Positions 1,534 to 9,455 of a stretch of DNA of 64,000 bases are shown here, piece after piece (within the stretch, counting starts at the first letter, position 1; every line of letters starts with the position of its first letter). Made by a program: the position numbers and the translations under genes. The DNA is from Candidatus Omnitrophota bacterium (GTDB lineage: Bacteria > Omnitrophota > Gorgyraeia > Tantalellales > Tantalellaceae), in contig JBDRBY010000081.1 of assembly GCA_043822245.1 (NCBI GenBank), positions 10,773-74,772 of the forward strand. The letters are read 5' to 3'. A model generated the notes under the pieces. The model was not told where the DNA came from and ran no database searches. It saw only the letters and a program-made list of their open reading frames with translations.

Positions 1534-1695
1534 ATGCCGGATGATTTATTTGATGAGTTTTTGGGATACGATTTTGTTATGGGCGCGGATGTCGTGAAAT
1601 GCCCGCATTGCGGGGCCGATGTGCCCTGTAGTTTGTTTTTCGATGACGAGGTCGAATGCCCAAAGTGTGGAAAGAAGTTTAAAAAGGATGATTGA
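1534..1695 (+). CDS. small zinc-ribbon protein (53 aa, CPHC...CPKC)
   Basis: ATG at 1534 with a purine-rich upstream stretch. Two CxxC pairs (CPHCG, CPKCG). Lies between the Res-like gene and the GHKL gene. Too short for the ORF track. Confidence 0.3.
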   Translation: MPDDLFDEFLGYDFVMGADVVKCPHCGADVPCSLFFDDEVECPKCGKKFKKDD

Positions 1696-1732
1696 AAGAT
1701 GCATAGATTAAATTTAAAGCGAGGAGAGTTGT

Positions 1733-3385
1733 ATGACTGAATCACCATTTGAAATGCGGTTTGATCCTCAGACAATAAAGCATCTTGGTGTACGAATGTA
1801 TTCTAGACTTGCGCCCGCATTGGCGGAGATTGTTTCAAATGCGTATGATGCTGACGCAACTAATGTTACAATTACTTTGATCGAAAAAGACGGAAATCCA
1901 GAGGAAATACGGATTGAAGATGATGGAATAGGAATCGCATACGATGAAATCAATAGTAAATTTCTAGTAATTGGTAGAAACAGGCGTGATGCTGAAGGAG
2001 ATAATCGTTCAGAAAAGCATAAGCGCTTGCCTACCGGTAAAAAAGGTCTTGGAAAACTCGCGCTGTTTGGACTTGCCAAAACTATTACAATTTCAACAAA
2101 ACATTCCGGAACGCAAAATGAATTTGTATTAGCATGGGATGATTTGATGATAGCAAAGGGTAGTTATCGACCTAGAGCAAATAGCATTAACGTTAGCACA
2201 AGCGATGCCGATGGGACGATAATTACGTTGACAGGATTAAAACGAAAAACACCATTTGATTTTAATGGATTAGCGGACAGTTTATCTCGAATATTTATTT
2301 TCGATGAAAGTTTTAATTTGGTTCTTGAATCACCTTCGGGAGACAGAATCTCAGTAGATAATAAGAGAAAATATAGCCTATTGGATAAGGAATTTGAGTG
2401 GGATCTTGGGTCAACATTATTGGTACCTTCAGAATCTGAATATCACGGAAAAATAAACGGGCACCTAATAACTTCGGAAAAACCGATTACACCTTCTTCT
2501 GGTCTAAGAGGGATAACTCTTTTTTCGAGAGGAAAGCTTGTAAATGCTCCTGAATTTTTCTCCAGTAGCGCTTCAAGCCACTTTTTTCAATACCTTACCG
2601 GATGGATAAGTGTAGATTTTATAGATCTCTTAGACGATGATGTTATATCAACGAATCGTCAATCCATAGATTGGGAACATCCCGATATGACTAAATTAAG
2701 AAAATTTCTTTCAGGAATAGTTTCACAAATTAATGCGGATTGGAGAAAGAAAAGAAAGGAAAAAAAAGACAAAGATTTAAAAGAGAAAACCGGAATTGAT
2801 ACTGGAAAATGGATAGATACAATGCCTGACGATGTAAAAGCGAATGCAGCACAAATTATTGAGACATTAGGTGGAGAAGATGCGCTTGAGAAATTTACTC
2901 CTATAATAAAAGCTCTACACGAAATTGTGCCTGAATATCCTCTTTTACATTGGCGTCATTTACATCCTGTTGTGCAAGAAAAATCTAAGCAGTACTATAT
3001 TAATAAAGATTATTATACTGCTTTCATCGAGGCCATTAAAAAATATGCAGATTCAGTTAAACAAAAGTCCGGTAGCACTGTAACTCCCGATATCAGTTTA
3101 ATGGGGGCTGTATTCAAAGAAGCAGCGGGTGACTTAGATGTTATAGGCAATTACAAAAAACAAGATGACGGTGAATTTACAGCAGACACTAAGAATAATA
3201 TCCAAAGTGGACAACAACATTTGTCTCAAGGTATTATAGCTGGAGGACGTAATCCATTATCACATGAGGAACATGATGAATTAAGAATATCCGGTTTGTT
3301 TTCAGAAAAAGATTGCTTAGACTTACTTAGTTTATTGTCCCATTTATTTAAAAGGCTTGATAATTCCGTAAAGAGAGAGACGTGA
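1733..3385 (+). CDS. GHKL/MORC-like ATPase (HATPase_c_3) fused to a C-terminal HEPN-like domain
   Basis: Bergerat-fold motifs are present: N-box AEIVSNAYDADAT (ExxxNxxDA), G1 box EDDGIGI (DxGxG) and G2 box GKKGLGKLALFG. Near the C-terminus GGRNPLSHEEHD fits the HEPN Rx4-6H signature. The stop codon overlaps the GTG start of dcm (GTGA). Confidence 0.6.
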   Translation: MTESPFEMRFDPQTIKHLGVRMYSRLAPALAEIVSNAYDADATNVTITLIEKDGNPEEIRIEDDGIGIAYDEINSKFLVIGRNRRDAEGDNRSEKHKRLPTGKKGLGKLALFGLAKTITISTKHSGTQNEFVLAWDDLMIAKGSYRPRANSINVSTSDADGTIITLTGLKRKTPFDFNGLADSLSRIFIFDESFNLVLESPSGDRISVDNKRKYSLLDKEFEWDLGSTLLVPSESEYHGKINGHLITSEKPITPSSGLRGITLFSRGKLVNAPEFFSSSASSHFFQYLTGWISVDFIDLLDDDVISTNRQSIDWEHPDMTKLRKFLSGIVSQINADWRKKRKEKKDKDLKEKTGIDTGKWIDTMPDDVKANAAQIIETLGGEDALEKFTPIIKALHEIVPEYPLLHWRHLHPVVQEKSKQYYINKDYYTAFIEAIKKYADSVKQKSGSTVTPDISLMGAVFKEAAGDLDVIGNYKKQDDGEFTADTKNNIQSGQQHLSQGIIAGGRNPLSHEEHDELRISGLFSEKDCLDLLSLLSHLFKRLDNSVKRET

Positions 3386-4413
3386 TTAGAAATAAATATA
3401 ATGCCATAGACTTGTTTGCCGGTTGCGGCGGATTGTCGGAAGGATTGAAGCAAGCCGGATTTTGTACAATAGCGGCTTGCGAAATTGATCCGGTTGCCGT
3501 TGCGACTTACCGGCTTAATCATCCCAGTGTTACTGTGTTTGAGAACGATATTAAGCTGGTAAATACATCCGAAGTGAAAAAACTATTGGGAGGCGAGCCG
3601 GTACATTTATTAGCCGGTTGTCCGCCTTGCCAAGGTTTTTCTTCTTTGAGAAGGCTAAATAAAAAAAGATCAGTGCGGGATGGGCGTAATTCCTTAGTCG
3701 ACGAGTATTACCGATTTATTGAAAAACTCAGACCGTTAACTATCATGATGGAGAATGTGCCGGGGTTGCAAAATTATTTCAAATTTCAAAATATGATTAA
3801 GAAATTAGAAAGAATGGGCTATCGACTTGATACTGCAGTTGTCAACGTAGCTGATTACGGAGTGCCTCAACGGAGGAAAAGATTGATTGTGGTAGGTTCT
3901 TTGCTTAATGAAATAAAAATTGCGCCCAGTGTAAATATCAAGAAAACAGTGGCAATGTGTATTGGTTCCATCGAATCTATACAAGAAACGAAAGATTCAC
4001 TCCATAAAATAGTAGCGAAACATACTGATAAAATAATGGAGATGATTAGATTGATACCTAAGGACGGCGGCAGTAGAACTGATTTACCGAAAAAATATAT
4101 TTTGAAATGTCATAAACGCGACAATGTCGGATTCAATGACATTTACGGTCGGCTTAAATGGGATGATTGTTCGTCTACGATAACCGGAGGTTGTCTTAAT
4201 CCCTCAAAAGGGCGCTTTTTACATCCGTCTGAGCATCGAGCTATTACTGCTCGTGAGGCAGCTCTACTGCAAACTTTTCCTATGAATTATGAGTTTCCGG
4301 AAAATGCAACTAAAACTAAGATTGCATTAATGATAGGGAATGCATTGCCTCCGGAATTTTGTCGTTTGCAAGCGAAAAACATATTGGATCACCTGGTTGT
4401 GAATTATGGCTGA
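3382..4413 (+). CDS. dcm: C5 cytosine-specific DNA methyltransferase
   Basis: Motif I DLFAGCGG, motif IV GCPPCQGFS, motif VI ENVPGL, motif VIII QRRKR and motif X GNALPP are all present. Confidence 0.9.
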   Translation: MIRNKYNAIDLFAGCGGLSEGLKQAGFCTIAACEIDPVAVATYRLNHPSVTVFENDIKLVNTSEVKKLLGGEPVHLLAGCPPCQGFSSLRRLNKKRSVRDGRNSLVDEYYRFIEKLRPLTIMMENVPGLQNYFKFQNMIKKLERMGYRLDTAVVNVADYGVPQRRKRLIVVGSLLNEIKIAPSVNIKKTVAMCIGSIESIQETKDSLHKIVAKHTDKIMEMIRLIPKDGGSRTDLPKKYILKCHKRDNVGFNDIYGRLKWDDCSSTITGGCLNPSKGRFLHPSEHRAITAREAALLQTFPMNYEFPENATKTKIALMIGNALPPEFCRLQAKNILDHLVVNYG

Positions 4414-4825
4414 TATCTTTTCTCCGAGCAAAAGAACTGAGATAATGAAGAAGATTCGCACTAAAGATACCGGGTGCGAATTGACGGTTAGAAAGATGAT
4501 TTATGCTATGGGGTATCGCTATCGTTTACATAAGAAAAGTTTACCTGGAAACCCGGACATAGTTTTTAATAGGCGCAAAAAGGTAATATTCGTTAACGGA
4601 TGTCTTTGGCACGGATGTAAGAAGTGTAGTCGATCTAAGTTGCCGGAATCTAACGAAAAATTTTGGAAAGATAAAATTCAAGGAAATTTTGTACGGGACA
4701 AACGAAATTATAAAGAATTAAAAAAACTCGGATGGAATTATTTTTGTGTTTGGCAATGTGAGATTAAGAAAAAGAACGAAGATAAATTGAAATCGAGAAT
4801 AGATAAATATTTGAGAAGTGAGTAA
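4406..4825 (+). CDS. vsr: very short patch repair endonuclease Vsr
   Basis: FVNGCLWHGC and ...GWNYFCVWQCE align with Vsr (FxDGCFWHxH ... GWxVxxVWEC). The start overlaps the dcm stop by 8 nt. Confidence 0.85.
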   Translation: MADIFSPSKRTEIMKKIRTKDTGCELTVRKMIYAMGYRYRLHKKSLPGNPDIVFNRRKKVIFVNGCLWHGCKKCSRSKLPESNEKFWKDKIQGNFVRDKRNYKELKKLGWNYFCVWQCEIKKKNEDKLKSRIDKYLRSE

Positions 4826-4925: not shown

Positions 4926-5603
4926 ATGACCAAAAAAATCATATCTGAAATTGATAACGAGCTAATTGCCGAAGAAAGTATTTTGGGAAATTCTAAATTT
5001 GTTTCACCGGATGAGTGGGGTGGATTCTGTACCTATCTTTTGAAACAGAATAGATATGTTTTGAGCAAGAAATGGAAAAGATTTATTGAAACGGTTTTGT
5101 TCACAGCTAAGAAACGGGAGCATCTTTTAAAATCAGGATCGGTATTATGCCGTGCGCGTATCGGTAGCGATGAACATGAGTATGAAGATGATCAAGGTGA
5201 ATATAGAATTGATATTAATCCGTTGCCTCCACCGGAAATAGATGCTCCACTTAGCGGAAAGGCGATAGAGGGGAGAATAAATCCTAAAGGGATTTCCTAT
5301 CTTTATTTAGCAAATAGTATCGAAACAGCTATATCGGAAGTCAGACCTTGGCTCAAACAGGAAGTTACGGTGGGACGGTTTAGCCTAGGTAAAGATGTAC
5401 TCCTTGTTGACGCATCTCAGGATAAACATAGTCGGTACGTTCTTTCAGAAAGAAAGATTGAAGAGCCATCGGAAAAATGGGAACCATTTGTCTGGAGAGA
5501 TATTAACCAATCTTTTTCTATCCCGGTTATATTCGGCGAAGAGCATATTCACTATGTTCCGACTCAATATTTATCTGAATGCTTTAAAAATGCGGTAAGT
5601 TAG
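4926..5603 (+). CDS. RES-domain protein (putative NAD+-targeting toxin of Xre-RES type), with a ~70-aa N-terminal extension
   Basis: LCRARIG ... GRINPKGISYLYLANSIETAISEV matches the RES-domain Arg, Glu and Ser conserved blocks (YRARxG ... GRxNxxGxxxLYxAxxxxTAxxE). Confidence 0.5.
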   Translation: MTKKIISEIDNELIAEESILGNSKFVSPDEWGGFCTYLLKQNRYVLSKKWKRFIETVLFTAKKREHLLKSGSVLCRARIGSDEHEYEDDQGEYRIDINPLPPPEIDAPLSGKAIEGRINPKGISYLYLANSIETAISEVRPWLKQEVTVGRFSLGKDVLLVDASQDKHSRYVLSERKIEEPSEKWEPFVWRDINQSFSIPVIFGEEHIHYVPTQYLSECFKNAVS

Positions 5604-5856: not shown

Positions 5857-6225
5857 ATGGTATGGGAAGGAATGGACGAGAGAAGATTCCCCAGGGTTAA
5901 ATACACATGTTTGATTAAGGTGCATGGCGAAGATCAAGAAAAGCCGATTGAAGCCTTTACCGAAAACATTGGAACTGGAGGGGTATGCGTGATTGTGGAA
6001 AAGGAGTTTAAGCTTTTTGAGGGAATATCTCTTGAGATAGCATTAGGTGATGGAGGAGATATAATTTTATGTAAAGGAACAATAGTATGGGTGGTGAAAA
6101 AACACTGCGTAAAGAAATTAGAGAAAAACACATATGACGTTGGTGTGGAATTTTTAGATATACTGAAGGAAGATAAACAGCGCGTAGCCAATCTTGTTCA
6201 AGCGGGTTCAATTGCTAAAACTTGA
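5857..6225 (+). CDS. PilZ domain protein (c-di-GMP receptor family)
   Basis: RxxxR motif (ERRFPRV) and DxSxGG-like motif (ENIGTGGVCV). An alternative start ATG lies at 5872. Confidence 0.65.
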   Translation: MVWEGMDERRFPRVKYTCLIKVHGEDQEKPIEAFTENIGTGGVCVIVEKEFKLFEGISLEIALGDGGDIILCKGTIVWVVKKHCVKKLEKNTYDVGVEFLDILKEDKQRVANLVQAGSIAKT

Positions 6226-6302
6226 CATCCAAAAACGCGCGTGATATACTCCACGGCGATTGGATTTTTTAAGTCTATTTCGAAGAAGGAGGTGAAAAAA
6301 TT

Positions 6303-6632
6303 ATGCAGAGGATAGTAAAAACGTTATTTGTTTGTTGCGTTGTTGTATCTATGGTAGGTATGGCCGCTCAGTGTTACGCTCAGGATCCAGCGAAAAAATT
6401 AAGCAGGGGCATTGCTAATGTCTTGACGGGTTGGGTAGAGCTCCCCAAAAATATCTATGAAACAAGCGTTGAAGAAAATGTGCTCTCTGGCCTTACGATG
6501 GGTCTGGCCAAAGGTGTTGGTATGACAATAGTTAGAACGGGCGCTGGTGTCTATGAGGCAGTGACGTTTCCGTTTCCAATACCAGAAGAATATGAGCCTG
6601 TCTTAGAGCCTGAATTTGTATTTAGTGAATAA
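6303..6632 (+). CDS. small secreted protein, exosortase-system-associated TIGR04073-like
   Basis: N-terminal signal peptide, then SRGIANVLTGWVELP, resembling the TIGR04073 core. The call is from recall and not verified. An RBS (aaggaggtgaaaaaatt) precedes the ATG. Confidence 0.35.
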   Translation: MQRIVKTLFVCCVVVSMVGMAAQCYAQDPAKKLSRGIANVLTGWVELPKNIYETSVEENVLSGLTMGLAKGVGMTIVRTGAGVYEAVTFPFPIPEEYEPVLEPEFVFSE

Positions 6633-6733
6633 TTTTACGAAGATGATTAATCAATCATTTGGACGAAAAGGGAGCGATTAGACGTCGTTCCTTTTCCGTT
6701 TTAGGAGACGTTTCTACAAAAAAAGGAAAACTT

Positions 6734-7093
6734 ATGGGAGAAAAGAGAAAATACATGCGGTTTGATGTTTTGCTTGAGGCGGTATGCTATACAGGAAAAG
6801 CGTTAAAAAAGTTAAAAGTAAACAATTTTTGCAAAGAAGGAATAGGCATATTAAGCGCTTCCCCTTTTTCTCAGGGGAAAGCTCTTGAGATAGAAATGAT
6901 GATTCCCGGAGATAATGTTCCGATAGTGGTTGAGGGTGAGATTGCCTGGACAAGCGCGGCAGTTTCAGATAATATGCAATATCAGGGAGGTGTTAAGTTT
7001 AAAAAAATTAGCAACGAGGATAAGAGCAGAGTGCTTGAGTACATTTATAAAAATTGGATAAAAAACGAGGGTCCTGAAAAAAACAATGAATAA
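6734..7093 (+). CDS. PilZ domain protein
   Basis: The ATG at 6734 is preceded by aaggaaaa. It has the RxxxR motif (KRKYMRF) and the GxG motif (KEGIGI). The ORF-track start at 6659 is a TTG extension. Confidence 0.6.
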   Translation: MGEKRKYMRFDVLLEAVCYTGKALKKLKVNNFCKEGIGILSASPFSQGKALEIEMMIPGDNVPIVVEGEIAWTSAAVSDNMQYQGGVKFKKISNEDKSRVLEYIYKNWIKNEGPEKNNE

Positions 7094-7103
7094 TGGAGGA
7101 AAA

Positions 7104-7391
7104 ATGAACTTAGATGAACAGAAAAAAGATGAAATAAATGAAACTGAAAATAAGGAAGAAAAGCCGAAACAAGAGGAGTCTTCCAAACAAGAAAAGAAGA
7201 AAGAATCTCCAAAAGAAAAAAAGGGTGACGCGAACCAGCCTAAACGTACGGCCCCTCTTAAACCTGCCGAATGCGCAGGATGTAGCAAGGCGTTATTGAA
7301 GAAGCTGTGGTATTACCGCGATGACGCTTTCTATTGCAATAAAAAGTGTTATAAGCGAAAGATAGAGGCGGACAGAAAGAAAGAAAAATAA
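7104..7391 (+). CDS. Lys/Glu-rich low-complexity protein with a C-terminal CxxC...CxxxC zinc-ribbon
   Basis: The RBS ggagg lies 8 nt upstream of ATG 7104. The N-terminus is highly charged and K/E-rich, followed by ECAGC...CNKKC. Confidence 0.4.
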   Translation: MNLDEQKKDEINETENKEEKPKQEESSKQEKKKESPKEKKGDANQPKRTAPLKPAECAGCSKALLKKLWYYRDDAFYCNKKCYKRKIEADRKKEK

Positions 7392-7512
7392 ATTCGCAAG
7401 ACGCGTAGATAACCACGGGCGGGGTTTAGACCACGCCTGCGGCTTTGTCGAAGGCGGCACGCTCTACATTTGATTTTTATCTTGTTGAAAAATACAAGGC
7501 GCGTGTTATAAT

Positions 7513-7869
7513 ATGTCCATTGTGGCGGATGATTGTATTTTTTGCAAAATGGTGGAAAAGAATGTAAATGCCGAGACGGTTTACGAAGATGAAGAGGTTA
7601 TGGCGTTTAAGGATCTCAAACCGCAGGCTCCGGTTCATTTCCTTTTTATACCCAAAAAGCACATTTCTACTCTGAATGATATCTCGTGTCAAGATGTTGT
7701 TTTAATTGGTAACTTGTTTGCGAGAATTAAAGAAGTTGCCCATAAAAAGGGCTTAGATAAAGATGGATACCGTGTGGTCGTAAATTGTGGTAAAAATGCT
7801 GGGCAGGAAGTTTTTCATTTGCACGCGCATCTCCTGGGAGGCAGAGTTTTTTCATGGCCCCCGGGATAA
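7513..7869 (+). CDS. HIT family (Hint-like) nucleotide hydrolase
   Basis: Histidine triad HLHAHLLGG, plus the conserved N-terminal CIFCKM...VYEDEE...AFKD block. Confidence 0.85.
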   Translation: MSIVADDCIFCKMVEKNVNAETVYEDEEVMAFKDLKPQAPVHFLFIPKKHISTLNDISCQDVVLIGNLFARIKEVAHKKGLDKDGYRVVVNCGKNAGQEVFHLHAHLLGGRVFSWPPG

Positions 7870-7917
7870 GACGCGAACAACGAGCGACGAACGACGAGAG
7901 ACGAATAGGAGGATAAG

Positions 7918-8283
7918 ATGGAACATAAAAATGAACGCCGAAACTATCCGCGCGTGAAAGACGAAAATGTGTCTGTTAAACTGTCAGGGGAAGGCTTCAA
8001 TACTATTACACAAAGTCTGGATTTAAGCGCTTCAGGTGTTTATTGTAAGGTGGCCGAACGCATACCCTTGATGACACGAGTACAGGTTGTTCTTGTTCTT
8101 CCTGCCAAACAAAACTCATCTTCTGTAACTATGAATGTTGAAGGAGTTGTTGTAAGAGAGAATTCGCTTAAAAAAGACGGCAAGGTAGAACAGTATGATA
8201 TTGCTATTTTTTTTAGCAGCCTTTTGCCGAAAGAGAGAAAACAACTCATGCAATACATTAGCCGAAAATTAATACAGAGTTAA
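7918..8283 (+). CDS. PilZ domain protein
   Basis: ERRNYPRV (RxxxR) and DLSASGVYCKV (DxSxGG-like). RBS ggagga upstream. Confidence 0.65.
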   Translation: MEHKNERRNYPRVKDENVSVKLSGEGFNTITQSLDLSASGVYCKVAERIPLMTRVQVVLVLPAKQNSSSVTMNVEGVVVRENSLKKDGKVEQYDIAIFFSSLLPKERKQLMQYISRKLIQS

Positions 8284-8347
8284 TCGGTCCTTCCATTCCG
8301 CTTGAGCGCGAGCCAATAGCAGAGATAATAGGAGAATAATTTTTGAT

Positions 8348-8884
8348 ATGGGGATTTTGGTAAAACAAAAACCGGTCAAATTGGCAGTGAGTATAATCTT
8401 TAAAGATGAAGACTGCCGTTGGCGGGCAGAAGAGTGTTTAGTCAAAAAATATGGAAAGGTCGAGCCTGTAAATACGATACTTCCGTTTGATTTTACGGAT
8501 TATTATAGTGAGGAATTCGGCGAACCATTAAAAAGACAGCTCATGTGTTTTAAAAGATTGGTGGATAATGAAAAAATCTACAAGATAAAGCTAGAAACTA
8601 ATAAAATCGAAGATAGTTTTAAGAAAAATGGAAAAAGAGTCGTAAACATAGATCCAGGGTATGTTACGAAAGCAAAACTTGTGCTGCTCTCTACGAAAGA
8701 TTACTCTCATCGCGTGTACATAGGAGGAAAAATATTCGCGGAAATAACTCTTTTTTTTCAAGGAGGCACTTTTAAGTCCCATCCATGGACATATCCGGAT
8801 TACGCTTCTCAAGAAATAGTATCCTATTTTAATAAAGTTCGAGCAATTTACAGGGATGAAATTAAAAACAATCATGTTTATTAA
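8348..8884 (+). CDS. conserved hypothetical protein (DUF4416-like; assignment from memory, unverified)
   Basis: 178-aa ORF with RBS. It carries NIDPGYV...KLVLLSTKDYSHRVY...PWTYPDY blocks. Confidence 0.4.
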   Translation: MGILVKQKPVKLAVSIIFKDEDCRWRAEECLVKKYGKVEPVNTILPFDFTDYYSEEFGEPLKRQLMCFKRLVDNEKIYKIKLETNKIEDSFKKNGKRVVNIDPGYVTKAKLVLLSTKDYSHRVYIGGKIFAEITLFFQGGTFKSHPWTYPDYASQEIVSYFNKVRAIYRDEIKNNHVY

Positions 8885-9455
8885 ACGAAAACACCTGTCT
8901 GTTATTCTTTTTTCCTCCATTGTCATTACAGTTGTTTTTGTTTGTACACTTCTGGGTTATATGCTCTACATACAGTGGAAGAAGGACAGTTATGCTTTGA
9001 ATTATAGCGACTCGATATGTAAATTGACGGCCGAGTTATTTGAAAAAGATATAGTTTTATCTAATGTGCGGGTTAAAGTTGAAGAGAAGGAATCTTTCCC
9101 CGATGTGCCTTTTATCGAAGGAAGCATTAAGAACAATTCGAATAAAGTTGTGACTTCTATCCTGATAGAAGCATCATTTTTAAAATCTGATGGGACAGTT
9201 GTTTATAAAGACTGGTTCTGTCCTTTGGGCGAAAGGTTCGCGCGCCAGAATTTTGGCGCGCCTGTTTTATTTTCGAGCATACGAGAAACAATAAATGTCC
9301 TTATGCCGGGAGAAAGTTTGCCGTTCAGGCATGTATTGAAAAACTGTCCCCGTGAGATTATCTCTCAATTTTTTTCAAGAATGGAATTTGCCAGAAATAA
9401 TTCAGAGGGTAAGATAAAGTTGGTTTATTCAATTTCAGGTATTGGTGTTTTATGA
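8856..9455 (+). CDS. membrane-anchored hypothetical protein
   Basis: N-terminal TM helix (VILFSSIVITVVFVCTLLGYMLY). It overlaps both neighbours, which suggests an operon. Confidence 0.4.
   Translation: MKLKTIMFIKRKHLSVILFSSIVITVVFVCTLLGYMLYIQWKKDSYALNYSDSICKLTAELFEKDIVLSNVRVKVEEKESFPDVPFIEGSIKNNSNKVVTSILIEASFLKSDGTVVYKDWFCPLGERFARQNFGAPVLFSSIRETINVLMPGESLPFRHVLKNCPREIISQFFSRMEFARNNSEGKIKLVYSISGIGVL

Follow-up and report, generated by a model that had tools for sequence, protein, structure and literature searches.

The window analyzed here, a 64,000-nt stretch of a contig from a Candidatus Omnitrophota metagenome-assembled genome, carries near its start three overlapping genes encoding a 550-residue fusion of a GHKL ATPase to a HEPN domain, a Dcm-type C5-cytosine DNA methyltransferase, and the very-short-patch repair endonuclease Vsr. 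These genes very probably make up a 3.2-kb, horizontally mobile cassette that resembles a restriction–modification (R-M) system of the NmeAI/NgoAXIV kind, with the GHKL-HEPN gene in the slot of the restriction gene (R) beside the methyltransferase gene (M) and Vsr (V). We further propose, with a probability of about 0.45–0.5, that the R arm of this system is an ATP-gated HEPN nuclease, which would be triggered by unmethylated DNA and have RNA cleavage as its output. The components of the cassette are as follows.

1651–1732, + strand: leader upstream of the cassette, at the left edge of the block common to a second Omnitrophota contig (L001); GAGGAG ribosome-binding site 6–11 nt before the ATG
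1733–3385, + strand: GHKL-HEPN gene (R slot), ATG start, 550 aa; paraMORC-type GHKL ATPase, S5 transducer, basic helix with helical linker, and HEPN (Ymh) domain
3382–4413, + strand: Dcm-type C5-cytosine DNA methyltransferase, GTG start, 343 aa (ORF list, Pfam, NCBIfam)
4406–4825, + strand: Vsr, the endonuclease of very-short-patch repair, ATG start, 139 aa (ORF list, Pfam, NCBIfam)

A first-pass annotation of this DNA had described three overlapping genes at 1733–4825, the first pair joined by a GTGA overlap and the second by 8 nt, and the list of open reading frames (ORFs) reproduces these coordinates and overlaps exactly, with all three genes on the + strand. The R/Dcm junction reads GAC-GTGA-TTAG, in which the R stop codon TGA (3383–3385) runs into the Dcm start codon GTG (3382–3384), giving an overlap of 4 nt. 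At the Dcm/Vsr junction, ATGGCTGA, Vsr begins before Dcm has ended, with 8 nt in common. A later start for Dcm is ruled out by its motif I (LFAGCGG), which already begins at residue 11. No terminator-like site or hairpin was found within the GHKL-HEPN, Dcm and Vsr genes, and no strong sigma-70-like site in the leader at 1651–1732.

The limits of the cassette are defined by comparison with L001. Positions 1651–4812 of the window are 96.8% identical to positions 5919–9080 of that contig, and beyond this block the sole further match between the two is a short zinc-ribbon ORF (87%). The shared block consists of the three genes and the 82-nt leader, with no further gene and no separate nuclease gene. 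Because the similarity stops at 1651–4812 except for the zinc-ribbon ORF, the three genes and their leader behave as one mobile unit.

Both partner proteins are recognized with confidence. Dcm matches the DNA_methylase family (PF00145, 207 bits, E 4.5e-61) and TIGR00675 (161 bits), and its translation displays the FxGxG, PC, ENV and QRR motifs, which bears out its earlier description as a bona fide C5-cytosine methyltransferase. Vsr matches PF03852 (99.5 bits, cut-off 27) and TIGR00632 (137 bits, cut-off 97.85). Since the window Dcm is only about 31% identical to the Neisseria Dcm, its target probably differs from the Neisseria target. A PDB sequence search with Dcm returned generic matches only (DNMT1, M.HaeIII and M.HhaI), which cover the catalytic half and are uninformative on specificity. 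Of the 4-mer palindromes in the 64-kb window, GATC and CTAG show the strongest depletion (ratios about 0.5) and are the only ones clearly depleted, and no site of the C-methylation type stands out as avoided.

Architecture and conservation of the GHKL-HEPN protein

The protein can be divided into an N-terminal ATPase module, a basic helical connection and a C-terminal HEPN domain, encoded as follows.

1808–2146, + strand: GHKL (Bergerat) ATP-binding domain, HATPase_c_3, aa 26–138 (83 bits, E 2e-23, cut-off 25)
2300–2677, + strand: S5-fold transducer, about aa 190–315, with SRGKLVN and STNRQS motifs (Foldseek, predicted secondary structure)
2681–2926, + strand: long basic helix, aa 317–353 (DWRKKRKEKKDKDLKEK), then small helical linker, aa 357–398 (AlphaFold model)
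2954–3358, + strand: HEPN domain of the Ymh family, PF09509 (Hypoth_Ymh), aa 408–542
3248–3265, + strand: predicted HEPN catalytic motif R506-N-P-L-S-H511 (Rx4H), from the translation; conserved in relatives

The Bergerat motifs ExxxNxxDA, DDGIGI and GxKGLGK, which the first-pass annotation had picked out, are present as EIVSNAYDA (aa 32–40), DDGIGI (aa 63–68) and GKKGLGK (aa 102–108), and G161-T162 completes the set. The key residues are E32, N36 and D39 in motif I, D63, G65 and G67 in motif II, and G102 to K108 in the ATP lid. An AlphaFold2 model of the 550-aa protein, built from a 57-sequence alignment, has a mean pLDDT of 86.6. Using Foldseek on this model, we found that the top matches of aa 1 to ~400 are the ATPase modules of MORC2/3/4, Hsp90/TRAP1 and SMCHD1, aligned over ~400 columns at E values of about 1e-12 to 1e-13. 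From these alignments we assign to the N-terminal module the arrangement of MORC and MutL, a GHKL domain followed by a transducer of the S5 type, in keeping with the MORC-like GHKL ATPase recognized earlier. MORC and MutL are ATP-driven dimerising DNA clamps. Sequence matches of the protein to MutL fall on motifs I–II. In the S5 motif STNRQS, R309, which we take from the resemblance of the motifs to be the counterpart of the ATP-contacting lysine of MORC, is inferred to contact ATP. The connection that follows is formed by a helix of 37 residues and is rich in positive charge, with 10 K/R within aa 330–356. It marks the end of the stretch common to BbrUII/HgiDII-type enzymes, whose family model NF050001 aligns to aa 6–379 only.

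The C-terminal domain matches Hypoth_Ymh (PF09509) with 68.2 bits (E 7.5e-19, cut-off 25) and TIGR02391 with 66 bits (cut-off 39.45). Its predicted fold is the all-alpha one of HEPN domains, and the segment GGRNPLSHEEHD (aa 504–515) holds the R506-x4-H511 pair, so that the HEPN domain with an Rx4H block proposed on first pass stands. The model consists of GHKL, S5, helices and HEPN only, and searches of the 550 residues with Pfam, NCBIfam and PADLOC gave no recognised DNA endonuclease domain (no PD-(D/E)xK, HNH, GIY-YIG, PLD or half-pipe match). PADLOC has no dedicated system model for the cassette; its generic REase_II profile matches the N-terminus, PD-Lambda-3_B and Aga_HEPN match the C-terminus, and the generic MTase_II is the other model that gives a match in the cassette.

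Conservation was counted in an alignment of 121 family members that reaches down to about 33% identity. The GHKL motifs are kept in 120 members, the exception being a gap in one sequence, and the S5 arginine R309 in all 121. In the HEPN domain, R506 is retained in 110 members, N507 in 107 and H511 in 119, and the Rx4H motif is invariant in the 57 closer relatives (57/57). Because these motifs are conserved across 121 relatives, both catalytic centres are under purifying selection. The HEPN domain itself occurs in two distinct sequence versions (...GGRNPLSHEE... and ...GFRNPISHxP...), spanning alignment columns of about 425–560, or about aa 412–545 of the window protein. Both versions retain the R and the H, and the N-terminal parts attached to them are still 65–90% identical, a pattern that suggests exchange of HEPN versions by within-gene recombination.

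Family distribution, synteny and genomic context

Of the candidates scored in a word-indexed search, 2479 proteins reached E ≤ 0.001, with named matches from many phyla; the 120 best listed homologues are about 450–560 aa long and nearly all have both Pfam domains. In an exhaustive search of representative sequences, 4873 clusters passed E ≤ 0.001, of which 300 also passed E ≤ 1e-30. With one genome taken per species (185,579 genomes), relatives are encoded at 481 loci. The best 80 of these, which span bacteria and archaea, served for the synteny counts below, made by tblastn and by ORF calling separately.

A Dcm homologue is present at 76 of the 80 loci by tblastn. By ORF calling, Dcm is adjacent and on the same strand at 63 (36 overlapping, 20 with a gap of 0–20 nt), adjacent but convergent at three, and elsewhere within 6 kb at eight. 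Six loci are left with no adjacent Dcm ORF: at L042 and L044, tblastn places Dcm directly upstream, L073 and L074 lie on short contigs, and at L013 and L059 no Dcm was found within the roughly 6 kb of sequence fetched on either side. Vsr accompanies R at 37 loci, and clustering of the neighbouring ORFs leaves just Dcm (73 loci) and Vsr (34 loci) as real partners that recur widely within 3 kb. The linkage of homologues to dcm and vsr, suggested on first pass as a point to be checked, is thereby upheld. The R-M-V order of the window is found in its closest relatives (L001–L008 and L010), and most other loci have the order M-R or M-R-V. These synteny statistics, together with the shared 3.16-kb block, rule out the reading of the three genes as chance neighbours. 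A Type IV (modification-dependent) enzyme is likewise ruled out, since the protein is nearly always encoded with its own Dcm.

To compare the evolution of the two main partners, 63 R/M pairs were examined in 1953 pairwise comparisons. R is better conserved than M in 81% of them (mean identity 0.495 vs 0.430), and R proteins that are 75–79% identical (for example, at L009 and L011) adjoin Dcm proteins only about 30% identical. Identity is uniform along R, with no hypervariable or swapped segment found, and the Dcm partners belong to at least six lineages at 45% identity. A replacement in situ can be seen at L017 (1971–7626), where the original Dcm is cut down to a 122-aa C-terminal remnant and R is intact; the new Dcm (386 aa) arrived with a second GHKL-like protein of 827 aa (EIITNGIDA, DAGDG) that has no Pfam match. 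The same layout is seen at L011, L019 and L020. Such decoupling of R from M is atypical for a sequence-reading Type II restriction endonuclease (REase), which is suggestive, not conclusive. R is disrupted beside a whole Dcm at L019, L063 and L077 and in N. gonorrhoeae, as would be expected of a costly R gene.

The cassette also occurs in the company of other restriction genes. At L002, L006, L007 and L008, which represent four phyla, a Type III mod gene (N6_N4_Mtase) and a Type III res gene (ResIII with RE_endonuc) enclose it, all on one strand, an arrangement that resembles that of prrC within an hsd operon. At L006 (3146–11753), an extra 194-aa ORF precedes the cassette. At L024 (4043–5941), the N-terminal half of Dcm and a complete HpaII-family REase domain (PF09561, E 1.9e-84) are fused in an ORF of 632 aa. 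This ORF lies upstream of the GHKL-HEPN gene at a distance of 53 nt, and the GHKL-HEPN protein here accompanies a conventional REase instead of replacing one.

The contexts of the cassette in the window and in L001 are defence islands. At the start of the window, an ORF cut by the window edge (1–1515, + strand) encodes the C-terminal 504 aa of a protein that has no Pfam match; it gives weak matches to REase_III (Type III REase) and BPTD_3080, and NPDF...VVEIKSD near its C-terminus looks like a PD-ExK motif. It is probably a further restriction gene of the same island. The zinc-ribbon ORF (1534–1698, + strand; 53 aa with two CxxC pairs) lies directly upstream of the cassette, and its 87% identical copy is found at L001 4135–4296. 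In L001, a SMODS and SLATT_4 pair (CBASS-like) separates the zinc-ribbon ORF from the GHKL-HEPN gene; a direct repeat of ~45 nt (about 4244–4290 and about 5911–5957) borders the pair, and this difference between the two contigs looks like an insertion or a deletion through recombination of the repeat. L001 also carries a Type IIG Eco57I/MmeI-like enzyme. Just downstream of Vsr, the window encodes a 225-aa RES-domain protein (4926–5603, + strand; PF08808, E 3e-8) whose N-terminus is extended by about 100 aa; adjoining its gene we saw none for an Xre-type antitoxin, and the RES gene is missing from the L001 context. The window as a whole shows a marked strand asymmetry, with 15812 G against 10539 C on the + strand, and all substantial ORFs of its first 9.5 kb lie on that strand.

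Proposed mechanism and alternative explanations

Given its domain composition and genomic position, we hypothesize that the GHKL-HEPN protein couples the methylation state of DNA to the activity of a nuclease. Very probably, Dcm methylates a short target sequence in the host DNA and Vsr repairs the T:G mismatches that arise from deamination of 5-methylcytosine (5mC), which would limit C-to-T mutation at methylated sites. Like their counterparts in MORC, MutL and Hsp90, the GHKL and S5 domains may act as a clamp or switch whose dimerisation is driven by ATP and which reads the state of the DNA either directly or via its Dcm partner, the product of the translationally coupled gene. The trigger would be DNA that lacks the cognate methylation, whether of an incoming phage or plasmid or of the host itself after loss of the cassette, and ATP-dependent dimerisation would then join two HEPN domains into an active nuclease. 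The most probable output would be cleavage of RNA (tRNA, rRNA or mRNA), leading to growth arrest or abortive infection, and not classical double-strand DNA restriction. RNA is the likeliest substrate because the Rx4H motif (R-N-x3-H) matches the HEPN catalytic motif and most HEPN domains, by prediction or experiment, are RNases (PMC3710099). In such a system the ATPase chassis would serve as the sensor and the C-terminal domain as an interchangeable effector, either HEPN or a probable PD-(D/E)xK DNase; we suggest a conserved sensor with a swappable effector because one ATPase chassis, in the same genomic slot, carries either C-terminal domain.

More specifically, and more tentatively, the cassette may be a hybrid of R-M and abortive infection, in which a MORC-like clamp detects missing 5mC, possibly with Dcm as its sequence reader, and the HEPN RNase halts translation. 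A reading role for Dcm would fit the better conservation of R than of M and the survival of R through a methyltransferase swap. The methylation-linked restriction or abortive-infection role that the first-pass annotation had supposed, with Vsr mending deamination damage, is a reasonable one and agrees with a published hypothesis.

Several observations weigh against an RNase gated by DNA methylation. No DNA-methylation-reading domain was identified in the 550-aa protein, so that the sensing step is one that we infer, and REBASE and NCBI handle the relatives as restriction enzymes. R and M identities correlate positively overall (Spearman 0.55–0.61), and therefore R could still co-evolve with the specificity of M; divergent Dcm partners could also share one target. 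In addition, a 2026 preprint (10.64898/2026.01.10.698803) ascribes cuts at unmethylated CCGG in N. gonorrhoeae in vivo to NgoAXIV together with NgoAXIII, which would point to DNA cleavage. The cuts were assayed only in a deletion of both operons, with the two modules not separated and no purified protein, and the gonococcal R gene is split.

These cuts would be expected if the GHKL-HEPN protein were instead an ATP-dependent, Type II-like REase that cleaves unmethylated DNA, with HEPN acting as a DNase or nickase or with a cryptic active site, and with Dcm protecting the host. We consider this rather unlikely. It would suit a gene that fills the R slot of a cassette with no other nuclease gene, and a homologue is entered in REBASE as the putative R.NmeAIP (PMC2441816). 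The ATPase chassis is, moreover, common to BbrUII and HgiDII, the latter placed among the Type II REases, and pre-methylation by M.BbrUII and M.BbrUIII raises plasmid transformation more than 1000-fold. However, the 550 residues contain no match to PD-(D/E)xK, HNH, GIY-YIG or PLD nucleases, and we know of no HEPN domain that cuts DNA; most members of the superfamily are RNases, predicted or shown (PMC3710099). Nor would a sequence-reading Type II REase be expected to be better conserved than M, to lack a variable recognition segment, or to stay intact when Dcm was replaced in situ, as at L017. A second possibility, which we regard as unlikely, retains the HEPN RNase but makes it a guard in the manner of PrrC: silenced by the methyltransferase or by a neighbouring R-M complex, it would be freed when a phage anti-restriction factor inhibits its partner, so that the trigger would be the loss of the partner's function rather than unmethylated DNA. 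This role was put forward in PMC3710099, and the tight translational coupling to Dcm, the nesting within Type III mod/res genes, the fusion of Dcm to an HpaII REase that immediately precedes the GHKL-HEPN gene at L024, and the position of the window cassette among other defence genes are all consistent with it. Yet there is no REase for it to guard in the mobile unit that the window and L001 have in common, the Type III nesting is confined to one sub-lineage, and no phage trigger is known.

It is improbable that the protein is an accessory of DNA repair, in which a MutL-like GHKL and S5 module would activate the co-encoded Vsr at Dcm sites and HEPN would serve a regulatory or binding function. 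MutL with ATP stimulates Vsr enzymes, including V.NgoAXIV, by 73–110% (PMC6116569), a parallel between MutL and Vsr was drawn by Iyer et al. (PMC2292703), and Vsr is encoded at all nine close R-M-V relatives (L001–L008 and L010). On the other hand, Vsr is missing at 43 of the 80 loci while Dcm is almost always present, the R/N/H triad of HEPN is conserved as in active nucleases, and restriction enzymes make up the sister family built on the same chassis.

The family is common in bacteria and archaea, including the pathogens N. meningitidis and N. gonorrhoeae, and is labelled in databases as restriction enzyme or as "TIGR02391 family protein". If its R arm proves to be an RNase under the control of DNA methylation status, many annotated Type II R-M systems would really be abortive-infection devices, and they would offer a prokaryotic precedent for MORC-type ATPases that read cytosine methylation. 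If HEPN cuts DNA instead, this would be, to our knowledge, new chemistry for the superfamily. The window itself adds one further member to a catalogued class and nothing categorically new; the mechanism of the family is testable.

Comparison with known systems

The architecture was described before. In 2008, Orlowski and Bujnicki noted that the REBASE entry for the putative R.NmeAIP combines an N-terminal GHKL domain with a C-terminal Pfam Hypoth_Ymh domain, and they placed HgiDII among the Type II REases, with the HgiDII-type family's C-terminal domain then unassigned (PMC2441816). Iyer, Abhiman and Aravind (2008) defined the paraMORC class of GHKL and S5 ATPases, which occur in R-M operons where cytosine methylases and Vsr abound (PMC2292703). 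Anantharaman et al. (2013) recognized Ymh as a HEPN family fused to paraMORC ATPases in R-M neighbourhoods, proposed a PrrC/RloC-like role for it, and inferred that most HEPN domains are RNases (PMC3710099). NmeAI is a published three-gene system (PMC3787668), and its methyltransferase makes C5mCGG. Our literature searches on Ymh/TIGR02391/PF09509 and on HEPN with GHKL and defence found no experimental paper on the family. The first-pass annotation had held that the combination could not be assigned to a named system, a view that these descriptions overturn, and with it goes most of the novelty claimed, as the NmeAI/NgoAXIV R genes are verified members of the family; PADLOC offers no dedicated model.

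The best structural matches of aa 1 to ~400 are MORC2/3/4, with TM-scores of about 0.42–0.57 on the target. Identity to MORC and MutL is 13–16%, and the window protein differs from them in having neither a CW or coiled-coil chromatin module nor the MutL C-terminal endonuclease/dimerisation domain. With PrrC and RloC it shares the fusion of an NTPase/ATPase regulator to a C-terminal HEPN nuclease and the embedding in R-M contexts, an analogy drawn in PMC3710099. PrrC and RloC have ATPases of the ABC/Rad50 type where the window protein has GHKL, and there is no homology outside HEPN, so the resemblance is architectural only. Both are anticodon nucleases, which cleave tRNA, one of the substrates proposed above for the GHKL-HEPN family; PrrC also accompanies a complete Type I system, whereas the minimal unit in the window has a methyltransferase only.

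Other paraMORC proteins, including those of the paraMORC3/Shedu type such as VcSduA, share with the window protein an N-terminal GHKL domain with intact ATP motifs, the S5 domain, a C-terminal effector, neighbourhoods rich in Dcm and Vsr, and a patchy, laterally mobile distribution. Their effector is a PD-(D/E)xK/DUF4263 or TIR domain, in contrast to the HEPN domain of the window protein, and VcSduA works alone, without a methyltransferase. WonAB and VcSduA of V. cholerae were considered as named relatives and rejected, WonAB being an ABC ATPase with a PD-(D/E)xK nuclease and VcSduA a GHKL protein with DUF4263.

The BbrUII/HgiDII family (NF050001) is homologous over the first ~380–400 residues, that is GHKL, S5 and helix (225 bits, E 1.6e-66). 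The match of aa 6–379 covers positions 1–398 of the 659 in the model, and at 225 bits it falls far short of the family cut-off (550 bits), which excludes the window protein from membership; the C-terminal ~250 residues differ, and the window protein has HEPN there. Relatives of ~630 aa from the representative search match NF050001 end to end (296–325 bits), and two of them give weak C-terminal matches to SduA_C and/or HSDR_N_2, which are of the PD-(D/E)xK type. They sit in Dcm-R or Dcm-R-Vsr loci, with Vsr in one case. From these matches, the C-terminal domain of BbrUII/HgiDII-type enzymes is probably a PD-(D/E)xK nuclease. The cognate methyltransferases of this family are m5C enzymes, that of HgiDII having GTCGAC as its target, and BbrUII adds to the transformation barrier of B. 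breve, where pre-methylation of the plasmid has the effect described above.

NmeAI and NgoAXIV provide the closest comparison. A cluster at 90% identity (P0292) unites 548-aa proteins of N. meningitidis with 198-aa C-terminal fragments of N. gonorrhoeae, and a contig of this cluster (L081) has consecutive genes for Dcm (351 aa), a GHKL-Ymh protein (554 aa) and Vsr (140 aa). Because the cluster and this Dcm-R-Vsr contig match the published system, the Neisseria NmeAI/NgoAXIV R genes belong to the GHKL-HEPN family. On a chromosome of N. gonorrhoeae (L083, 2107–5072), the NgoAXIV R gene is broken into two ORFs, one of 297 aa with GHKL and half of S5 and one of 198 aa with HEPN, which fits the "R1/R2" ORFs of NgoAXIV in the 2026 preprint (10.64898/2026.01.10.698803). 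The split loses the STNRQ part of S5, and in that strain the methyltransferase region also consists of two overlapping ORFs; PLSDB records two gonococcal chromosomes of 2.17 Mb as plasmids, this one among them. A search of the N. gonorrhoeae chromosome record for the gonococcal "RM2R" enzyme detected no second GHKL homologue and no HpaII-family gene. The full-length Neisseria homologues, of 548–554 aa, carry HATPase_c_3 and Hypoth_Ymh, are 39–45% identical to the window protein, and are encoded, like it, in a tightly packed group of Dcm, GHKL-HEPN and Vsr genes. Neisseria has these genes in the order M-R-V, the window in the order R-M-V. The architecture and its R-M context have thus been known since 2008–2013, and what the window adds to them is an R-M-V-ordered example from Omnitrophota.

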